Below, in pieces: positions 1,835 through 28,576 of a stretch of 37,114 bases of DNA; positions within the stretch are counted from its first letter, which is position 1, and each line of letters begins with the position of its first letter. The translations under genes were made by a program, and so were the position numbers. The stretch is taken from the UHGV virus genome UHGV-0042115; one strand, written 5' to 3'. Origin of the DNA: a virus. Under the pieces are notes generated by a model. That model was not told the origin of the DNA, searched no databases, and worked only from the letters and a program-made list of their open reading frames with translations.

Positions 1835-2386
1835 TTAAATTCTGTTTTGCAGACCTGATATAAAAATATTATAACTGTGTGAAAGATTTCCAGTGATTCT
1901 AAGGCACTTGCCTATTGCTCTTGATCCAGATACCTTTTGATAAGCGTATTTTGTCAGAGATACCAATTCTTGAGCTGCGTTACCAAGTCGATCAGGGTTA
2001 CGATATTTACTATTATTTTGAGATCGGGAAAGCCGCGGGATTCCTAAAGCTTCCTCGACAGACAATAAATCTCCAAGATACCAGCTTTCAAGCTCATGGC
2101 ATGCAATGCGTATTAAAACATCTGTTTTACCAGCCTTTGAGCAAATATCAGACAGTCTAGATTTAATTGTTGGACCATCTCCGCTATCTTTATCTCTAAT
2201 GACTACAAAAATAGTATCAGGAGTCATCCAGTTTTTTAATTTTTTCTCCAAGTTCTTTTCTAGATCCTGTTTACCTTCAAATACAATATATCGAGTGTCT
2301 GCATCTGCCGGAAGTAATCGAGGCAGTAATCCTTTCAGCATTTCTGCTGCAGATAATTCTTCTAGAAAGAAAGCATAAGTTGTCAT
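1835..2386 (-). CDS. Small Toprim-like protein (DUF4276-like by motif recollection), partner of the upstream ATPase
   Basis: 183 aa; motifs IVFEGKQD and VVIRDKDSGDG resemble Toprim E...DxD; start overlaps the ATPase stop (ATGA); AT-rich. Confidence 0.55.
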   Translation of the reverse strand: MTTYAFFLEELSAAEMLKGLLPRLLPADADTRYIVFEGKQDLEKNLEKKLKNWMTPDTIFVVIRDKDSGDGPTIKSRLSDICSKAGKTDVLIRIACHELESWYLGDLLSVEEALGIPRLSRSQNNSKYRNPDRLGNAAQELVSLTKYAYQKVSGSRAIGKCLRITGNLSHSYNIFISGLQNRI

Positions 2387-3582
2387 TGCGGATCAACTCC
2401 TGGGAAAAATCCTTGTTTCCATAAATATCCCATTTTATCTCCATCATTCATATAGGCTACAAGTTGAGGATCATCTGAAGCCCTGAAAGCACGAGTATAT
2501 CCATTGGTTTTAGTTAACCAGAAAACCTCATCAATATTTACTGCATTCAAGAAGTCTGGGGAATGTGTAGAAACAAATACTTGCCCTCCTCTCTGTGTAT
2601 AGGCTCTGAACTCCTCTGCTAATTCTACTAGCAGTTTTGGATATAGTTGATTTTCCGGCTCTTCGACACATAATAATGGATGAGGCTCAGGATCGTGTAA
2701 TTGTACTAAATATGCAAACATTTTTAATGTTCCATCAGATACATATCTATCGATAAAGGGATCTGCAAAGCTTCCATCTTGAAAACCTAATAATAAACGA
2801 CCATCTTGAGTGCTTATCGGTTTAACATCAGAAACTCCGGGAACTCTATGTTTCATTGAGTCAATAATTTTAGAAAATATTTCAGGATAATTATCGTGGA
2901 TGTTTCGTGCAACTAACTGTAAATTATCGCCAGTTGCAGAAAGATGGTCTTCATATCCAATAGCATCTTTTGATCCCCTAGCTGCATTGATATGAAAGTC
3001 GGAAACATGCCAATTTTCAATTAACTGCCTGAAAGCACTGGCTGCTTTAAATTTACTAAATTGACCTAACCCTTTGATTGCTAAAACATCATCAGAATCA
3101 AGCTGCTGAGTCTCTCTGTTTAGTTCTTCATCTTGTTTACTGAAATCATCTTCATTAACAATCGCAGTACCATGGCCTCTGGAGAAGTCCAAAAAGTGAT
3201 AAGGCGAGCCAAAGGAACCTCTTTTATATCTCAAGATTTCTCTTTCAACATAAACTTTTTTCCTAGAATCTTCTTTAAGTTTTAGAATATAAGTAACTAA
3301 TCGTTCATACCCACTTATTTCAATACGAAATTTTACTTCAATCTCTATTGTCCGGTCGGTAACATCCACTCCACGGCTCAGAAGTTCTTCAAAACCTCCT
3401 CTTTTCTGAACAGCACTTCTCACATTGAAAGTAAGACAATCTTTCAGAAAGCCAAACACATCAAAAAGAGTAGTTTTTCCTACGCCGTTTGCCCCGACAA
3501 TAACACAAAATTTGGGGATATTGTTCATCTCAAGATCTTGGAACGACTTGAAATTTTTTAATTTTATGGCTTCAATTAACAT
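2383..3582 (-). CDS. ABC-type ATPase (OLD/AAA_15/AAA_21-like architecture)
   Basis: 399 aa; N-terminal Walker A GANGVGKTT, C-terminal Walker B LLCVEEPE and STHSP H-loop separated by ~250 aa; ATG 8 nt after the repressor stop with SD-like AGGA in between. Confidence 0.75.
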   Translation of the reverse strand: MLIEAIKLKNFKSFQDLEMNNIPKFCVIVGANGVGKTTLFDVFGFLKDCLTFNVRSAVQKRGGFEELLSRGVDVTDRTIEIEVKFRIEISGYERLVTYILKLKEDSRKKVYVEREILRYKRGSFGSPYHFLDFSRGHGTAIVNEDDFSKQDEELNRETQQLDSDDVLAIKGLGQFSKFKAASAFRQLIENWHVSDFHINAARGSKDAIGYEDHLSATGDNLQLVARNIHDNYPEIFSKIIDSMKHRVPGVSDVKPISTQDGRLLLGFQDGSFADPFIDRYVSDGTLKMFAYLVQLHDPEPHPLLCVEEPENQLYPKLLVELAEEFRAYTQRGGQVFVSTHSPDFLNAVNIDEVFWLTKTNGYTRAFRASDDPQLVAYMNDGDKMGYLWKQGFFPGVDPQ

Positions 3583-3590
3583 AATGTTCC

Positions 3591-4484
3591 TTAATTGCTT
3601 TTATTGATGCTGGAAATGAATAAATAAACTCTAGCTACAAAATTGATATCAGAAAAACCACATTCAAAGCTATTTATGGAGGATGATACTTTTATCACCT
3701 TCTTAGGTAGTCTTGTAATATGCCGAATTGAATAGGTTTCATCGATATTGATGAGCCAGTGTCCATCCAATACATCAGTAATGTTTTGATCACAAATGTA
3801 TGTCATCAACCCGTCTTGAATGACAATTGGTGCTGAAAGATTAGCAGGTAAAAATGACGTATCGAAAATATATGAACCACACTCAACCATTTTTCCTGCA
3901 TTGAGATGAAATTTAGGCAGCTCTTTTACCAATGTTGTGAGAGAACTGTGCTTGCTGCCTTGCCCAGTGGCTAGCCATAAAAGAGAATTTCCTGTTTCCA
4001 ACGAGCATTTTATGATCCAATCAGCTGGGAAAGTGTCTCGTAAATATCTGTTTGCCATGGTGCTTTTAGATACATTCAAATGGTCGGCAAGTTCTTGTCT
4101 TGTTTTGAAGCCATACGCTTTCATTAGCCGGTCTATTGCATCACGTCCGCCTGAATCCAAATTCAGCAAGTTCCCAATAGGGTTCTCTTGATTATTGATT
4201 TGGGGAACATACTGAACCTTTGGTGCAGTTGCCTTTGACATGACCGATGCCTCTGTATTCTGAGGGAATGGTACGCCTTTTCCGAATGAGAGCCATTCGA
4301 TAGATGCACCCGTTTCAATTGCACACTGAATTACCCAGTCAGCAGGAAATACGTCACGCATCCAGCGCGTACCCATAGTGCTTGCAGATACGTTGAACTG
4401 CTCGCATAGAGCTTGCCTTGTCTTGAATCCATACGCCTCAAGCATGCGCGTTATGACTGCTTGTCCTCCGTTTTTGAAATTCAT
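3591..4484 (-). CDS. 186 CI-type immunity repressor with tandemly duplicated N-terminal DNA-binding domain
   Basis: 297 aa; two copies of the ...AYGFKTRQ.L...NVS.STM..R..RD.FPADW.I.C..ETG......WL..G.G module (aa 9-70 and 116-176) then a C-terminal domain; divergent from the apl/cII genes. Confidence 0.7.
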   Translation of the reverse strand: MNFKNGGQAVITRMLEAYGFKTRQALCEQFNVSASTMGTRWMRDVFPADWVIQCAIETGASIEWLSFGKGVPFPQNTEASVMSKATAPKVQYVPQINNQENPIGNLLNLDSGGRDAIDRLMKAYGFKTRQELADHLNVSKSTMANRYLRDTFPADWIIKCSLETGNSLLWLATGQGSKHSSLTTLVKELPKFHLNAGKMVECGSYIFDTSFLPANLSAPIVIQDGLMTYICDQNITDVLDGHWLINIDETYSIRHITRLPKKVIKVSSSINSFECGFSDINFVARVYLFISSINKSN

Positions 4485-4509
4485 TTATTACGCCTTTGAG
4501 TAATTTTGG

Positions 4510-4538
4510 TTGACACTTCTCAAATGAAGAATTAGTGT
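4510..4538 (+). promoter_or_regulatory. Candidate rightward early promoter (TTGACA, 17-nt spacer, TAGTGT)
   Basis: Consensus -35 with a weak -10, located in the repressor / apl divergent intergenic region. Confidence 0.25.
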
Positions 4539-4608
4539 GTGCGAAAGTGAACTGAACAGGATTGATCACCAGTTACCACACATCTTGTTAAACGAGGAAT
4601 CTTGCATC

Positions 4609-4830
4609 ATGACTCCACATATTTCAATCACCTTAGCTGTCCCATCTGTGTCTATTGAGAAATACAGTGAACTGACTGGGTTATCTATCGATACTATCAA
4701 TGACATGCTGGCTGATGGCCGCCTTATTCGCCATCGTCTCCGTAAAGATAAAAAGCGAGAAAAGGTAATGATCAATATCGCTGCAATGACCGTTGATGCG
4801 CTCTCTGAATGCAATTTGAGTATTAACTAG
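4609..4830 (+). CDS. Apl/Cox-like small early protein (excision/regulatory); alternative start at 4537
   Basis: First rightward gene divergent from the repressor; GAGGA SD 10 nt before ATG 4609; small basic protein. Confidence 0.45.
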   Translation: MTPHISITLAVPSVSIEKYSELTGLSIDTINDMLADGRLIRHRLRKDKKREKVMINIAAMTVDALSECNLSIN

Positions 4831-9768: not shown

Positions 9769-9788
9769 TACTGTAAATATAAACAGTG
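9769..9788. promoter_or_regulatory. LexA (SOS) box TACTGTAAATATAAACAGTG
   Basis: Perfect CTGT-N8-ACAG dyad; a degenerate overlapping second site GTG-N10-CAG at 9786-9801. Confidence 0.6.
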
Positions 9789-9828
9789 GTTATGTATACA
9801 GTATTGTTTTGGTGTCATAGGAGGAAAG

Positions 9829-9885
9829 ATGCAGGACTATTTTTTGGAGTCTTTGAAGCTCCAGCGCATTGATTTTTTTTCTTAA
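9829..9885 (+). CDS. 18-codon ORF (MQDYFLESLKLQRIDFFS) with strong SD, directly downstream of the LexA box; possibly the 5' part of a split tum-like gene
   Basis: AGGAGG at 9819-9824; ends inside a T8 run; the next frame continues as a 50-codon ORF to 10018. Confidence 0.25.
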   Translation: MQDYFLESLKLQRIDFFS

Positions 9886-10028
9886 GCTTGTAGCGGCTAG
9901 TGAGTGTAGTGATGAAGAGAAGGGGCTGGCTCTGCAGTGGGTTTCTGAATTGACTGATGAACTCATGGCAAAAATCAGAAGCCACGAATACAACCGCTCA
10001 ATGGATGTCATCAGCTGAGGTGACTTTT

Positions 10029-10262
10029 ATGCGCATTGAAATAATGATCGATAAAGAGCAGAAGATTAGCCAGTCTACCCTGGACGCACTTGAATCCGAG
10101 CTTTACCGCAATCTGCGCCCCCTGTATCCCAAAACGGTAATTCGCATTCGCAAAGGTAGCTCTAACGGTGTGGAACTAACCGGACTGCAACTGGATGAAG
10201 AAAGAAAACAAGTGATGAAAATTATGCAGAAGGTGTGGGAGGACGACAGCTGGCTGCATTAA
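10029..10262 (+). CDS. DinI-family protein
   Basis: 77 aa MRIEIMIDKEQ...LDALESELYRNLRPLYPKTVIRIRKGSSNGVELTG...MQKVWEDDSW resembles E. coli DinI; GAGG SD; track ORF starts earlier at 9957. Confidence 0.75.
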   Translation: MRIEIMIDKEQKISQSTLDALESELYRNLRPLYPKTVIRIRKGSSNGVELTGLQLDEERKQVMKIMQKVWEDDSWLH

Positions 10263-11318: not shown

Positions 11319-11894
11319 ATGCTTTTACCCGTAAGTATTACATCGTGTGGCTTGTATCACCCCTACTGGCATTTGGGAGAGCGCAACCCTCATAGCGATG
11401 AACTATCAAGGCAGATGATGGATTTTAAGGATGAAAATAATCGTAATCATCAAAGGGCCATTAACCGTTTTTCTCGATTAGCTATAGATAAGGTTGGGCG
11501 GTTAGTAATCAGAGGTGGCGGTGGGCGTTTTGTTGAGTCTCCTTTTTCGATAGCAGTTGTCCCGTCTCACACTGAAGGCAGAATTTCACCGGCTTTGATT
11601 GAGGTCGCCGAGCGAATCGTAAATGTTCACCGTCGGGGCATTGTTGATTGCTGTTTGGAAAGAACACGCACTGTTCCTAGCGCACATCGTGAAGGTGGAG
11701 ATCGCTCAATTACTGGTCACATGTCTAGTATCAGAGTTAGGGGTGGTAACCTCATGGGGCGAAATGTGTTACTACTAGATGATGTTAAAACAACAGGCGG
11801 TAGTTTGTCTGCGTGTTTTTATTTACTGGAGTCTGCAGGAGCTGGAGTTATAATGCCATTAGCTCTGCTAGAAACTGCAAACTATGAGGAGTAG
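11319..11894 (+). CDS. Phosphoribosyltransferase (PRTase)-domain protein, ComF-like; candidate toxin/effector
   Basis: 191 aa; C-terminal PRPP-binding motif NVLLLDDVKTTGGSL; ATG directly after an in-frame stop. Confidence 0.7.
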   Translation: MLLPVSITSCGLYHPYWHLGERNPHSDELSRQMMDFKDENNRNHQRAINRFSRLAIDKVGRLVIRGGGGRFVESPFSIAVVPSHTEGRISPALIEVAERIVNVHRRGIVDCCLERTRTVPSAHREGGDRSITGHMSSIRVRGGNLMGRNVLLLDDVKTTGGSLSACFYLLESAGAGVIMPLALLETANYEE

Positions 11895-11898
11895 CAAA

Positions 11899-12858
11899 GT
11901 GCACTCAGAAGAATTAAAAAATACACTTGGATTAGCTATTCAAATCGGGAAGCTAGCATCTGATCAAAGTGTATTAAAATTCTTTGAGCTTATCGATTTT
12001 GATGTTATTCGTGATATACGCGACTTAACTGAGATGGTTAATAGCCACGGGTTTCTAAAAGATAAAATATCTGAGACTGATTTTCTAATAGCGAACGCTG
12101 AATTGGAGAACCACCATGTTAATGGTGTGGAGCTAATACCATATGGGTCTGAATTCTATCCTCTTAGTTTAGCTTTTACTCCTAATCCACCATCAATTCT
12201 CTACATAAAAGGGGATAAAAGTATACTCAAAGAATTGCCGGGTGTCGCAATTGTAGGATCCCGTGATACCTCCCCTGCAGGGGAAGAAATAACGAGGCGG
12301 ATCACTAATCAGATAGTGTCTGCTGGGTATATTGTTGTAAGTGGGTTAGCAATAGGCACTGATGCGAATGCTCACAAGGCAACGTTACAGGCAAAAGGAA
12401 AAACCATTGCTGTCTTGGCGCATGGTCTTGAGGAGGCTAAGCCGAAGCAAAACAGTCGACTTGCTCAAGAGATTCTGGATAAAGGTGGTGCATGGATTTC
12501 TGAGTATCCTATGGGTCGGCCGGCCCAGAAACAATCATTTGTACAAAGAAATCGGATACAAGTTGGATTATCTGCAGGTTCAATTTTAATCGAGGCTGCG
12601 TTAAATAGCGGAACGATAACTCAAGCTGAGTTTGCAAATAAGGCGAAAAGACCAGTGTTTGCGGTTGTACCTCACCTACCTAATAATCCGCTTAATCTTA
12701 ATTGTGAGGGAACAGTTGATTTAGTTAAGAGCAACATGGCTAGAGCGCTAAAAACAAAACGGGATTATGATGATGTGATTATGATCATAAATGAGTCCCG
12801 GGAGTATTTGTTAGAGCTAAAATGGCCAGGGAAACAGAGTACATTAGACTTGATTTAA
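11899..12858 (+). CDS. DprA/Smf-like (Rossmann-fold DNA-processing) protein; alternative ATG start at 11884
   Basis: VAIVGSRDTSPAGEEI...VVSGLAIGTDANAH...TIAVLAHGL...YP...FVQRNRIQVGLS...LIEAALNSGT...PVFAVV matches the DprA core; AGGAG SD 7 nt before GTG 11899, just after the PRTase stop. Confidence 0.8.
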   Translation: MHSEELKNTLGLAIQIGKLASDQSVLKFFELIDFDVIRDIRDLTEMVNSHGFLKDKISETDFLIANAELENHHVNGVELIPYGSEFYPLSLAFTPNPPSILYIKGDKSILKELPGVAIVGSRDTSPAGEEITRRITNQIVSAGYIVVSGLAIGTDANAHKATLQAKGKTIAVLAHGLEEAKPKQNSRLAQEILDKGGAWISEYPMGRPAQKQSFVQRNRIQVGLSAGSILIEAALNSGTITQAEFANKAKRPVFAVVPHLPNNPLNLNCEGTVDLVKSNMARALKTKRDYDDVIMIINESREYLLELKWPGKQSTLDLI

Positions 12859-26311: not shown

Positions 26312-26387
26312 ACTGCGCTTAGCTGCTTGTCAGACACAATCACTTCAACATAGGGCGAAGCCTAATCCAATCAGGAGGTTCGCCACT

Positions 26388-27560
26388 ATGGCTCAGGATT
26401 ACCACCACGGAGTGCGCGTTGTTGAAGTCAACGAAGGCACTCGATCCATTACCACGGTGAGCACCGCCATCGTGGGCATGGTCTGCACGGGCGATGATGC
26501 CGATGCAAAAATGTTCCCTCTTAATAAACCCGTGCTGATCACTGATGTGCTTACTGCCAGCGGTAAGGCGGGTGAATCCGGTACGCTGGCCCGTTCGCTG
26601 GATGCCATCGCTGACCAGGCAAAACCCGTGACCGTTGTTGTGCGTGTGCCGCAGGGTGAAACGGAAGAAGAAACCACGACCAATATCATCGGCGCAGTGA
26701 CTGCTGAAGGTAAAAAAACTGGTATGAAAGCCCTGTTATCTGCCCAGTCACAGCTCGGTGTTAAACCGCGCATTCTCGGCGTGCCGGGGCACGATAATAA
26801 AGCCGTTGCTACTGAGTTGCTGGGCGTGGCGCAAAGCCTGCGTGGGTTTGCTTACCTGTCAGCGTATGGCTGCAAGACGGTGCAGGAGGCGATCACTTAC
26901 CGTAAAAACTTCAGTCAGCGTGAAGGGATGCTGATTTGGCCTGACTTTACTGGCTGGGACACGGTGCTGAATGCCGACGCAACGGCATATGCCACCGCCC
27001 GTGCGCTTGGTCTGCGTGCCAAAATTGATGAGCAGACAGGGTGGCACAAAAGCCTGTCCAACGTGGGCGTGAACGGTGTCACCGGAATTTCTGCTGATGT
27101 GTTCTGGGATCTGCAGGACCCGGCAACTGATGCGGGACTGCTTAACCAGAACGATGTTACCACACTTATCCGCAAAGACGGCTTTCGCTTCTGGGGTTCC
27201 CGCTGTCTGAGTGATGACCCACTCTTTGCCTTTGAAAACTACACCCGCACGGCGCAGGTGCTGATGGACACGATGGCAGAAGCGCCAATGTGGGCGGTCG
27301 ACAAACCGCTGAATCCGTCGCTGGCCCGCGACATTATCGAAGGTATCCGCGCCAAAATGCGCAGCCTGATCAGTCAGGGCTATCTCATTGGTGGCGATTG
27401 CTGGCTGGATGAGTCGGTGAACGACAAAGACACTCTGAAAGCTGGAAAACTCACCATCGACTACGACTACACACCAGTGCCGCCACTTGAAAACCTGATG
27501 CTGCGTCAGCGCATCACCGATCAGTACCTGGTGAATTTCGCCAGCCAGGTCAGCGCGTAA
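26388..27560 (+). CDS. FI: Tail sheath protein FI
   Basis: 390 aa; AGGAGG SD; P2 FI-like. Confidence 0.9.
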
Positions 27561-27569
27561 GGGGACAAC

Positions 27570-28085
27570 ATGGCTTTACCACGCAAATTAAAACACCTCA
27601 ACCTGTTTAACGACGGGAACAACTGGCAGGGGATCGTTGAGTCGCTGACGCTGCCGAAATTCACCCGCAAATATGAGAAGTATCGCGGCGGCGGAATGCC
27701 GGGAGCAGTGGATGTGGATCTGGGGCTTGATGACAGTGCGCTGGACACAGAATTTTCCATTGGTGGTACTGAACTGCTGCTGTTTAAGCAGATGGGCAAA
27801 GCCACGGTGGATGGCATCCAGTTGCGCTTTACCGGCTCTATCCAGCGTGATGATACCGGGGAAGTGCAGGCCGTGGAGCTTGTGGTGCGTGGACGTCACA
27901 AAGAAGTGGATTCCGGCGAGTGGAAGACGGGCGAAAGCAACACCACCAAAGTGACCAGTACCAACAGCTACGCGAAGCTGACTATCAATGGTGAGGTGCT
28001 CTATGAAGTGGACCTTATCAACATGGTGGAAATTGTGGACGGTGTGGACCTGATGGAAGCGCACCGCAACGCCCTCGGCCTCTGA
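27570..28085 (+). CDS. FII: Tail tube protein FII
   Basis: 171 aa; P2 FII-like. Confidence 0.9.
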   Translation: MALPRKLKHLNLFNDGNNWQGIVESLTLPKFTRKYEKYRGGGMPGAVDVDLGLDDSALDTEFSIGGTELLLFKQMGKATVDGIQLRFTGSIQRDDTGEVQAVELVVRGRHKEVDSGEWKTGESNTTKVTSTNSYAKLTINGEVLYEVDLINMVEIVDGVDLMEAHRNALGL

Positions 28086-28139
28086 TGTATCTGAACGGCG
28101 CGGAATGCCGCGCCAGAACCTAATTTACAGGACAGCAAA

Positions 28140-28442
28140 ATGAGCGATAAGCAGACTGAAAAGACCATTCAACTGGATACCCCCATCATGCGTGGTAAAA
28201 CTGAAATCACCGAAATTGTGCTGCGTAAACCGCAGTCCGGTGCGCTGCGCGGTACACGCCTGCAGGCCATTATGGATATGGATGTGAACGCGATGATGAC
28301 CGTGATCCCCCGCATCTCCAGCCCGGCGCTGACTGCACAGGAAATTGCAGAGATGGACCCGGCAGATCTCACTGCCATGTCGGTTGAGGTTGTCACTTTT
28401 TTGTTGAAGAAGTCGGTGCTTGCCGGTTTACCGACAGCCTGA
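28140..28442 (+). CDS. E: Tail assembly chaperone E
   Basis: 100 aa, immediately upstream of tape measure. Confidence 0.8.
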   Translation: MSDKQTEKTIQLDTPIMRGKTEITEIVLRKPQSGALRGTRLQAIMDMDVNAMMTVIPRISSPALTAQEIAEMDPADLTAMSVEVVTFLLKKSVLAGLPTA

Positions 28443-28576
28443 CGGTTGATGATCTGGTGGCAGATATCGCCACCATTTTTCACTGGCCGCCATCCGTTAC
28501 TGACGTTATGCCGCTGACCGAAGTGCTGGAATGGCGGTATAAAGCGATTCAGAGAAGCGGGGCCAACGATGAGTGA
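28140..28576 (+). CDS. E+E' extended product via -1 frameshift at T TTT TTG (28397-28403)
   Basis: Slippery heptamer inside E; the -1 frame is open from 28403 to TGA 28574-28576, overlapping the T start, as in P2 E/E+E'. Confidence 0.6.

Follow-up and report, generated by a model that had tools for sequence, protein, structure and literature searches.

The virus genome UHGV-0042115 (37,114 nucleotides; "the window" below means this whole stretch) comprises the whole of a P2-family prophage of the 186/PSP3 type, which sits in a gene for an FAD-binding protein. Its cI gene encodes a protein of 297 amino acids (aa) that carries two helix-turn-helix (HTH) domains, N1 and N2, in front of a single C-terminal domain (CTD). 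We think it probable that this protein is the working immunity repressor of a complete prophage and a chimeric, 'two-headed' version of phage 186 CI, in which an N1 head of one repressor class ('gamma') has been linked to a whole repressor of another class ('alpha'), and in which the two heads would serve different operators. The class names 'gamma' (e.g., P0102, 206 aa) and 'alpha' (e.g., P0005/P0010, 198 aa; P0101, 201 aa) are our own.

Domain architecture of the repressor

The open reading frame (ORF) at 3591..4484 is named 'phage repressor protein CI' in RefSeq (WP_001009713.1, in identical E. coli prophages), and E. coli Z226-7 and MS 85-1 carry the identical gene, likewise annotated as CI. 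Pfam places two stretches of PF07022 (Phage_CI_repr; E 3.4e-59 for the whole protein) and one match of PF16452 (Phage_CI_C; aa 189-287, E 1.2e-24) in it. The boundaries of the heads (aa 6-72 for N1, aa 112-178 for N2) were set by an HTH profile made from the window's two copies. BLASTP of the first 100 aa against the rest of the protein gave an ungapped alignment with 38 identities in 70 positions (54%, E 9e-32), which excludes a chance likeness. An AlphaFold2 single-chain model, built on 40 tandem homologues, has two confident five-helix domains (aa 7-67 and 113-173) and a confident beta-rich CTD; the linker between the heads (aa 76-105) has a predicted local distance difference test (pLDDT) score below 50. 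The helix-3 residues S-T-x-x-x-R, which are found family-wide, are retained in N1.

The original prediction, made from the DNA alone, had described two 186 CI-type N-terminal modules followed by a single C-terminal domain, and Pfam, the HTH profile and the AlphaFold2 model agree with it. Its coordinates for the modules (aa 9-70, nt 4275-4460; aa 116-176, nt 3957-4139) and its shared motifs (AYGFKTRQ, NVS.STM, FPADW, ETG and WL..G.G) are correct in both copies, and both of the tests it proposed for the domains came out in its favour: the two segments are significantly similar in the pairwise alignment given above, and domain hidden Markov models place two HTH domains rather than one. That the gene encodes the immunity repressor of the prophage, as was also proposed, is backed by the domains, by the alignment with 186 CI and by the fold; that the two-HTH layout affects operator use and immunity is plausible.

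186 CI (PDB 2FJR, 2FKD; GenBank AAC34176) shares the PF07022 HTH and the PF16452 CTD with the window CI. Each of its subunits has a single HTH domain that is directly connected to the CTD, whereas the window CI adds an N-terminal HTH domain of a different class on a flexible linker of ~39 aa; its N2 is followed by a short hinge and the CTD. In the alignment, 186 CI covers only aa 114-294 of the window CI, and N2 plus CTD align collinearly and end to end with the 186 CI structure 2fjr (E 6e-26). The modelled CTD superimposes on that of 186 CI (2fkd_A) with a TM score of 0.93 and a root mean square deviation of 1.3 Å over 109 columns (Foldseek, E 4e-11). This fold is conserved at 28% identity; the whole window model is 31% identical to 2fjr, and its HTH domains are 35-42% identical to the N-terminal domain (NTD) of 186 CI (23/65 and 27/65). 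The PDB entry 2fkd contains 14 chains, and this CTD structure is the source of the 14-mer wheel model (PMC3675496). LexA and lambda CI-type self-cleaving repressors possess an S24 domain with a Ser-Lys dyad and are different: the window CI had no Peptidase_S24 (PF00717) match in Pfam down to E = 1, and its CTD has only a distant fold resemblance to LexA (E 1e-5, 8% identity).

The same order of domains (PF07022 twice, then PF16452) is present in the CI of the Salmonella phage PSP3 (Eganvirus PsP3; PSP3p31, NP_958086.1, 286 aa), which aligns collinearly with the window CI over the full length at 28% identity. PSP3 is cultured and UV-inducible, so a tandem-HTH CI can serve a viable, inducible phage. 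The greater length of the CI proteins of PsP3 and of a CFT073 prophage had been put down to 'a longer C-terminal domain', and the two HTH domains were not recognised (PMC3448106). A full-text literature search, which did not reach subscription-only papers, found no description of tandem HTH domains in a 186-type CI. A monomeric mycobacteriophage immunity repressor likewise possesses two DNA-binding modules in one polypeptide; it is reported to have an unrelated fold and to bind as a monomer to one asymmetric site (PMC9283540), whereas the window CI has homologous heads, an oligomerising domain and candidate palindromes of two kinds.

Selection and recognition helices

Ratios of non-synonymous to synonymous substitution rates (dN/dS) were calculated for four pairwise comparisons among the window and the related loci L009, L011 and L007. 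For N1, dN/dS was 0-0.018 at dS 0.12-0.43, and for N2 it was 0-0.156, the three comparisons that involve L011 or L007 giving 0.024-0.156. The linker (0.34-0.51) and the CTD (0.29-0.38) had higher values; the window and L009 are too close for ratios of these two parts. Both heads are under strong purifying selection, and N1 is the most constrained part of the protein and, with such values, no decaying relic.

The segments of the recognition helices, VSASTMGTRWMRD in N1 and VSKSTMANRYLRD in N2, are unlike at 5 of 13 aligned positions. The heads of the window CI are therefore not two copies of one specificity. The 13-residue segments of the two heads differ in all 45 tandem cluster representatives, by 2-8 positions. 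The helix types of the N2 heads are those of single-HTH repressors (the VSKSTMANRYLRD segment of the window is of the same type as that of the single-HTH repressor P0101), whereas those of the N1 heads never occur in the single-HTH repressors of our set.

Origin of the two heads

N1 is about 54-55% identical to its own N2, as compared with 86-87% to the sole HTH domain of gamma repressors (86% to aa 1-73 of P0102). N2 together with the CTD is 73% identical over 178 aa to a complete alpha repressor (P0005, 198 aa). In a bootstrapped neighbour-joining tree of 42 HTH domains, the N1 domains of the window class and the gamma single-HTH domains formed a clade in 100% of bootstraps, while all first domains, or all second domains, were monophyletic in 0%. 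The DNA immediately upstream of the window cI is homologous to that upstream of a gamma-class locus. The original prediction had explained the two copies by an internal duplication. The homology behind this idea stands, as chance is excluded, but the nearest relatives of N1 are the gamma domains and not N2. The shared nucleotide similarity that had been taken as a sign of duplication does not carry the argument either: the DNA of N1 and N2 is 59% identical overall and 33% at third codon positions, i.e., these positions are saturated, so that the similarity mirrors the conserved protein and retains no trace of a recent duplication.

The linker DNA has kept what look like remains of the start of an alpha gene and of an alpha-type operator, the palindrome described below. 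In tandem repressors, the linker closes with a sequence that matches the N-terminal leader of a single-HTH repressor: P0004 has 'SPNEIIINPNQGG' where P0005 begins with 'YPNEIKINPNKGG', and P0006 has 'HMNFTHGG', to be compared with 'MNF/MDFxxGG' as the first residues of single-HTH repressors. Alpha-class genes begin with ATGTCAAC, which overlaps the -35 element TTGACA of their own pR, and the region around the internal Met82 codon of the window cI (ATGTCAA; Table 1) is likely to be a relic of the start codon and pR -35 of the donor gene. The Met82 ATG with its upstream GAGG is present in the window, L009 and L011 and absent in the L007 class. A start at Met82 could yield a 216-aa single-HTH isoform equivalent to an alpha-class repressor; such a short isoform was considered and, as the codon is not conserved in the L007 class, Met82 was treated as a relic.

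The affinity of N1 to the gamma class and of N2 plus CTD to the alpha class, the saturated sites and the relics in the linker thus mark the window CI, as far as sequences can tell, as a chimera of two anciently diverged heteroimmune modules, not a fresh duplication. Most likely, the 5' part of one cI was fused in frame to the start region of a second, heteroimmune cI, to judge from the linker and the affinities of the modules. The reverse course, an ancient tandem ancestor followed by repeated loss of one head, appears less parsimonious. Modules seem to have been exchanged after the fusion as well, e.g., the CTD in L007, which looks unrelated to that of the window (25% identical) while N1 (99%) and N2 (88%) were kept. 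A single common origin of the tandem arrangement is not what we found: the first domains are polyphyletic, and the heads of PSP3 are closest to each other (46%), unlike those of the window, which suggests an independent origin of the PSP3 repressor. The tandem architecture as such, by these two observations, points to several independent origins.

Candidate operators at pR

A palindrome scan recovered the annotated pR operator, FL and FR of phage 186, which bears out the approach. Homology with 186 and alpha-class loci was the ground for assigning the candidate early promoter pR; its layout is that of the annotated 186 pR, which carries a palindromic operator in the spacer. An automatic promoter/terminator scan of the switch region called nothing, pR being missed because its candidate -10 element is weak.

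The palindrome filling the pR spacer (O2) is the best match of the window to the idealised palindrome (1 mismatch), and the second-best (O3, 2 mismatches) lies 28 bp upstream of it and abuts the start of cI. O2 is unchanged in all six distinct upstream sequences of the window repressor class and, by its position, is homologous to ACTTTCCATTTGGAAAGT, the operator of the gamma class, as well as to that at pR of 186. The interval between O2 and O3 varies among relatives in sequence and, by 1 bp, in length, whereas O2 and the core of O3 are kept. The spacing of 28 bp differs from the two-turn spacing of the operators in 186 (PMC3675496). In the gamma-class locus, ACTTTCCATTTGGAAAGT at pR is accompanied by flanking half-sites, and an intragenic palindrome (TCTTCAATTGAAGA, at +238) has arms resembling those of O2. 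Gamma single-HTH repressors, with an NTD 86% identical to N1 and a homologous upstream operator region, have a single operator family (ACTTTCCATTTGGAAAGT) at pR, and alpha single-HTH repressors, 73% identical to N2 plus CTD, have another (GTNCCCAANTGGGNAC). Further candidate half-sites of the O2 type are listed in Table 1; the half-site pattern TTGAGWADT, which was chosen post hoc after the sites were seen, is matched 5 times in the window (1.6 expected for its whole length), and 4 of these matches fall within 4496-4824.

Several other candidates were set aside. TTTGAG...CTCAAA had been considered as a long-spacer inverted repeat around the -35 element, but the gamma locus and 186 possess compact palindromes of 16-18 bp. 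The gamma half-site GGAAAGT occurs in the window at chance level and not at pR, which implies that the candidate window operators are related to the gamma type without being identical to it. The GTGAACTG / AGTGAACTGA repeats (at 4546 and 4666) were rejected as a second operator type, being mildly above chance and having an inverted partner with two mismatches. Whatever its role, AGTGAACTGA is an exact direct repeat (4546-4555 and 4666-4675, plus strand, 120 bp apart) with one copy between pR and pL and the other in the apl coding region, and a related copy lies at 4388-4400 in the 5' end of cI; it could be a site for Apl, CII or CI. In tandem repressors of class c, an element of the pR spacer (GGATC or GGTTC) seemed to covary perfectly with the N2 helix type over 13 loci, but beta-class single-HTH loci break this rule, and we do not use it as evidence.

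An alpha-type palindrome inside cI

In the locus of the single-HTH repressor P0101, the perfect palindrome GTTCCCAATTGGGAAC is located just downstream of the pR -10 element. More generally, the alpha-class palindrome GTNCCCAANTGGGNAC stands just downstream of the pR -10, and a weaker copy is found 15 nt into cI. A scan of the 37 kb of the window (at most 3 mismatches) revealed no alpha-type palindrome at pR. The only match to GTTCCCAATTGGGAAC under this threshold (0.15 expected) was GTTCCCAATAGGGTTC, 300 bp inside cI in the stretch encoding the linker (Table 1). The window CI unites the heads of both classes, and its alpha-type palindrome lies within the gene and not at pR.

This element, which matches in 13 of 16 positions in the window, recurs in the same position in diverged relatives (L011, 15/16; L007, 13/16), although the linker protein is only 51-69% identical there. 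Compared with the leader codons of alpha genes (CCA AAT GAG ATC), those of the window class (CCT/CCA ATT GGG AAC) carry changes that are non-synonymous and improve the palindrome. Other tandem classes whose leader is of the alpha type have related elements in the equivalent position, and tandems with a beta-type N2 lack them. Its centre is 346 bp from that of O2; FL of 186 is located at +271 inside cI, ~300 bp from pR. The candidate site at the FL position is of a different sequence type from that in 186. The original prediction had proposed a search for matching repeated half-sites; what the search revealed instead were two different types of palindrome. The switch region of PSP3 has no comparable palindromes and is uninformative on this point.

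Two class-c tandem loci (L017 and L073) have a palindrome of their own, GAAATCCACATGAATTTC / GAAAACCACATGGATTTC, at +370 to +387 from the ATG, where it straddles a relic internal ATG just before the beta-type N2. It could serve as an operator or form an RNA hairpin, or be no more than a relic.

Proposed mechanism and alternatives

The following scheme would account for these features. As in 186, the CTD would bring the subunits together in dimers and higher oligomers. Pairs of N1 heads would bind O2 and O3 and shut off the lytic promoter, while pairs of N2 heads would bind the alpha-type palindrome inside cI. This site would take the role of 186 FL/FR, in looping or in cooperative or auto-regulatory binding, and the N2 heads might also bind the operators of incoming alpha-class phages. 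SOS induction would proceed through a LexA-controlled, TumA-like antirepressor. What we observed directly is the architecture, the homology of the modules, the selection on both heads, the difference between their helices, and that the candidate sites are present and conserved. The assignment of heads to sites, the oligomeric state and the looping are what we infer.

Several points weigh against this scheme. The assignment of heads to operators is derived from homology and co-inheritance, and linkage alone could keep N1 beside the upstream operators. 186 CI is reported, in one paper, to bind two distinct types of sequence with its single HTH domain, and alpha-class single-HTH phages also carry a TCTC-armed element in the pR spacer; taken together, these imply that N2 could bind O2 and O3, too. 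With 13 of 16 positions matched, the chance expectation of 0.15 per window for the intragenic palindrome is not negligible, and, given its equivalents in other alpha-leader tandem classes, it may be only an inherited relic. The half-site count depends on a pattern defined after the fact. The AlphaFold2 model (predicted TM score, pTM, 0.54) does not give the arrangement of the heads. As for the origin, a deep split in the neighbour-joining tree roughly parts most N1 from most N2 domains; that the event was a fusion rather than differential loss is a direction we infer.

A broader form of the two-headed scheme is that tandem-HTH CIs in general are bispecific repressors, and that the addition of a head is a recurrent route to asymmetric immunity: an N1 with a specificity absent from the single-head repressors of our set would control the phage's own pR, which resident single-head prophages could then not repress, and N2, sharing its specificity with common single-head phages, would repress these competitors and/or bridge pR to an intragenic site. 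We put this forward tentatively, as a possibility that is rather doubtful in so general a form. If true, a wheel of the 186 type would carry 28 heads of two sorts and hold two classes of operators at once.

Alternatively, only N2 could bind the phage operators, N1 being an accessory domain, either a docking site or decoy that tunes the sensitivity to a Tum-type antirepressor of this or another prophage or a contact that alters oligomerisation. N2 plus CTD alone indeed equals a complete single-HTH repressor, alpha-class HTH domains appear to handle more than one type of site, a LexA-controlled tumA/tumB-like module is present, and strong purifying selection on N1 is equally expected of a protein-binding module. 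Tum of 186 is said (by Shearwin et al. in 1998) to act by binding CI. However, N1 retains the full five-helix HTH fold and the S-T-x-x-x-R of helix 3, the pR operators are homologous to those of gamma phages, whose only HTH domain is N1-like, and pR lacks an alpha-type palindrome. We regard a purely accessory N1 as unlikely.

It seems comparably improbable that the repressor is bispecific for the sake of one-way immunity alone, with N1 providing a new specificity for the phage's own operators that escape resident alpha repressors, N2 repressing superinfecting alpha phages, and the intragenic site being incidental. Such a division of labour agrees with the helix types (N2 exactly as in the common single-HTH repressors, N1 never found there), with the near-invariance of the first domain across class-c tandems with varied N2, and with the abundance of alpha-class prophages in the same hosts. 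Yet the switch region of class c is still largely alpha-like, so that an escape from alpha repressors is not evident there, and the conservation, even improvement, of the intragenic palindrome in the window class suggests a function in cis.

A simple tandem duplication within the gene, whose copies recognise the same half-site, so that each subunit would occupy a full operator or doubled identical operators, is highly improbable for the window lineage and is largely refuted there. The two domains are clearly homologous and collinear, and a true duplication may have occurred in other lineages, as in PSP3, whose two heads are most closely related to one another (in a small comparison). In the window, by contrast, N1 is closer to gamma (86%) than to N2 (55%) and groups with the gamma clade in all bootstraps, the third codon positions are saturated, the helices differ at 5 of 13 positions here (and in all 45 tandem representatives), and palindromes of two types were found, not one repeated half-site. 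Finally, an artefact or decaying gene (a fusion of adjacent repressor genes or fragments by frameshift or mis-assembly, or a pseudogenising relic) can be dismissed: although Met82 with its upstream GAGG resembles a former start codon, intact identical or near-identical ORFs in independent complete E. coli genomes (31 of 5426 with a close relative), the 1782 member sequences of 46 tandem clusters, the strong purifying selection and the same layout in cultured PSP3 refute it through conservation across independent assemblies.

We thus return to the two-headed chimera with divided operator use as the probable reading of the window CI.

Prophage context

Table 1. Features of the cI switch region and the SOS module in the window (O2, O3, palindromes and half-sites are candidates).
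Feature	Position	Strand	Basis or remarks
cI gene, 297-aa tandem-HTH immunity repressor	3591..4484 (including stop codon)	-	ORF list; Pfam PF07022 x2 + PF16452
CTD, aa 179-297, 186 CI_C fold (oligomerisation domain in 186)	3594..3950	-	PF16452, model superposition
N2, second CI-type HTH, aa 112-178, 'alpha-like', recognition helix SKSTMANRYLR	3951..4151	-	Pfam, HTH profile, model
Inter-domain linker, aa 73-111 (~39 aa), predicted disordered, fast-evolving	4152..4268	-	pLDDT, dN/dS, alignments
Alpha-type palindrome GTTCCCAATAGGGTTC, candidate FL-like site for N2	4170..4185		+300 from ATG, linker codons ENPIGN
Internal Met82 codon within ATGTCAAAG, GAGG 8 nt upstream	4239..4241	-	Reverse complement contains TTGACAT
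N1, first CI-type HTH, aa 6-72, 'gamma-like', recognition helix SASTMGTRWMR	4269..4469	-	HTH profile, model
O3, imperfect palindrome ATTACGCCTTTGAGTAAT, upstream of -35, abuts cI start	4487..4504		Second-best window match, 2 mismatches
Candidate early lytic promoter pR, toward apl-cII	4510..4538	+	TTGACA 4510-4515, 17 nt, TAGTGT 4533-4538; read from sequence
O2, palindrome ACTTCTCAAATGAAGAAT filling pR spacer, candidate main operator	4515..4532		Best window match to idealised palindrome, 1 mismatch
apl/cox-position gene, 73 aa, first of rightward early operon	4609..4830	+	RefSeq annotation of identical locus
Further candidate O2-type half-site TTGAGAAAT	4655-4663		
Isolated candidate O2-type half-site TTGAGTATT at apl stop codon	4816..4824	+	FR position in 186
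LexA box CTGTAAATATAAACAG (9771-9786), small ORF, DinI-like ORF	9771..10262	+	LexA-box search; PF06183 DinI E 1.2e-22

The left end of the prophage is identical in E. coli Z226-7, MS 85-1 and SW071618. The genes are, in order, int, a two-gene cargo and the leftward cI, followed in the rightward direction by the gene at the apl position, cII, fil, genes for DUF5347, DUF2732 and a TraR-like protein, dam, and a replication gene. According to the annotation of the identical locus, cI comes first in the leftward lysogenic operon and faces apl-cII-fil across the pR/pL switch. This gene order is the layout of phages 186 and PSP3; 186 shares the switch in particular (cI leftward; apl, cII and fil rightward), and its palindromic operator in the pR spacer and extra sites ~300 bp to either side have candidate counterparts in the window. 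The protein encoded at the apl/cox position has no Pfam match, and the homologous ORF in the locus L002 has a weak Phage_Cox match.

The LexA box with the small ORF and the DinI-like ORF corresponds to the split tumA/tumB arrangement annotated in PSP3, and this putative Tum-type SOS module would be a further likeness to 186. In PSP3, which thus shares both gene order and split module with the window, the upstream gene of the pair is reported to encode the antirepressor (PMC3121763). Judged by this likeness, the tumA/tumB-type antirepressor module is the likely inducer acting on the window CI. A second LexA-box match (1777-1792) is present between int and the DUF4276 gene.

The cargo between int and cI (1835-3582, minus strand) encodes a 399-aa AAA ATPase and a 183-aa DUF4276 protein, which match the PADLOC candidate defence pair HEC-01 over the full length (E 1.6e-209 and 6.9e-75). 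Relatives carry a SNIPE/T5orf172 protein (L005), an AAA_15 ATPase (L089) or other ORFs (L007) at this position, which looks like a defence hotspot. A second cargo pair (11319-12858, plus strand), located between the tum region and the portal gene, encodes a 191-aa ShosT-like phosphoribosyltransferase (E 3.7e-14) and a 324-aa ShosA (DprA-like; E 2.8e-70), i.e., a Shosta-type defence system. Z226-7, the switch region of which is identical to that of the window, has a 779-aa AAA ATPase in its place, and the window diverges from Z226-7 beyond ~9.8 kb. As the cargo at this second site differs, the window stems from a different strain or is mosaic. Furthermore, a serine-recombinase-family gene (27936-28502) lies next to oppositely oriented genes for a tail fibre and a tail-fibre assembly protein (26349-27908; from the Z226-7 annotation), which suggests that 26349-28502 is an invertible host-range segment of the Gin/Cin type.

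Distribution and significance

We define the tandem-HTH variant of CI as a single polypeptide of about 285-330 aa in which two PF07022 domains precede one PF16452 domain, and the window CI fits this definition. Of the 120 best-matching clusters at 90% identity, 46 are of this variant; their 1782 members come from E. coli, Salmonella, Klebsiella, Citrobacter, Enterobacter, Kosakonia and Edwardsiella. Among 5426 complete E. coli genomes, 31 possess a close relative of the window cI, and 41 have relatives of one class-c gene. Among representatives at 50% identity, the family has 238 members (E <=0.001), and at least two HTH stretches were found in 37 of the best 150 of them; distant tandem lineages belong to Pantoea, Citrobacter, Edwardsiella, Hafnia and Shewanella. 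The tandem architecture will be listed in domain databases.

Outside this variant, P0250 (335 aa) combines a tandem CI-type HTH with a Peptidase_S24 self-cleavage domain in a fusion, and the distant HTH relatives P0194 (460 aa), P0228 (997 aa) and P0230 (340 aa) are arrays with 4-6 copies per protein (four HTH_3 stretches in P0230). The multiplication of heads is hence not restricted to the CI_C context.

The tandem-HTH CI is a variant of a well-known repressor family that is widespread, maintained by selection and, apparently, uncharacterised. Among alternatives to the lambda switch, 186 CI is one of the best understood, and it is used as a part in synthetic circuits; in its model, each subunit displays a single DNA-binding head on a 14-mer wheel. 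In about a quarter to a third of the family clusters studied here, PSP3 included, each subunit has two differing heads. If both heads bind DNA, immunity specificity would evolve by the addition of modules rather than by point mutation, which could account for cross-immunity or one-way immunity between P2/186-like prophages of E. coli, Klebsiella and Salmonella, and such proteins would be natural scaffolds for bispecific repressors. If only one of the heads binds DNA, the other would be a new regulatory module on a classic repressor.

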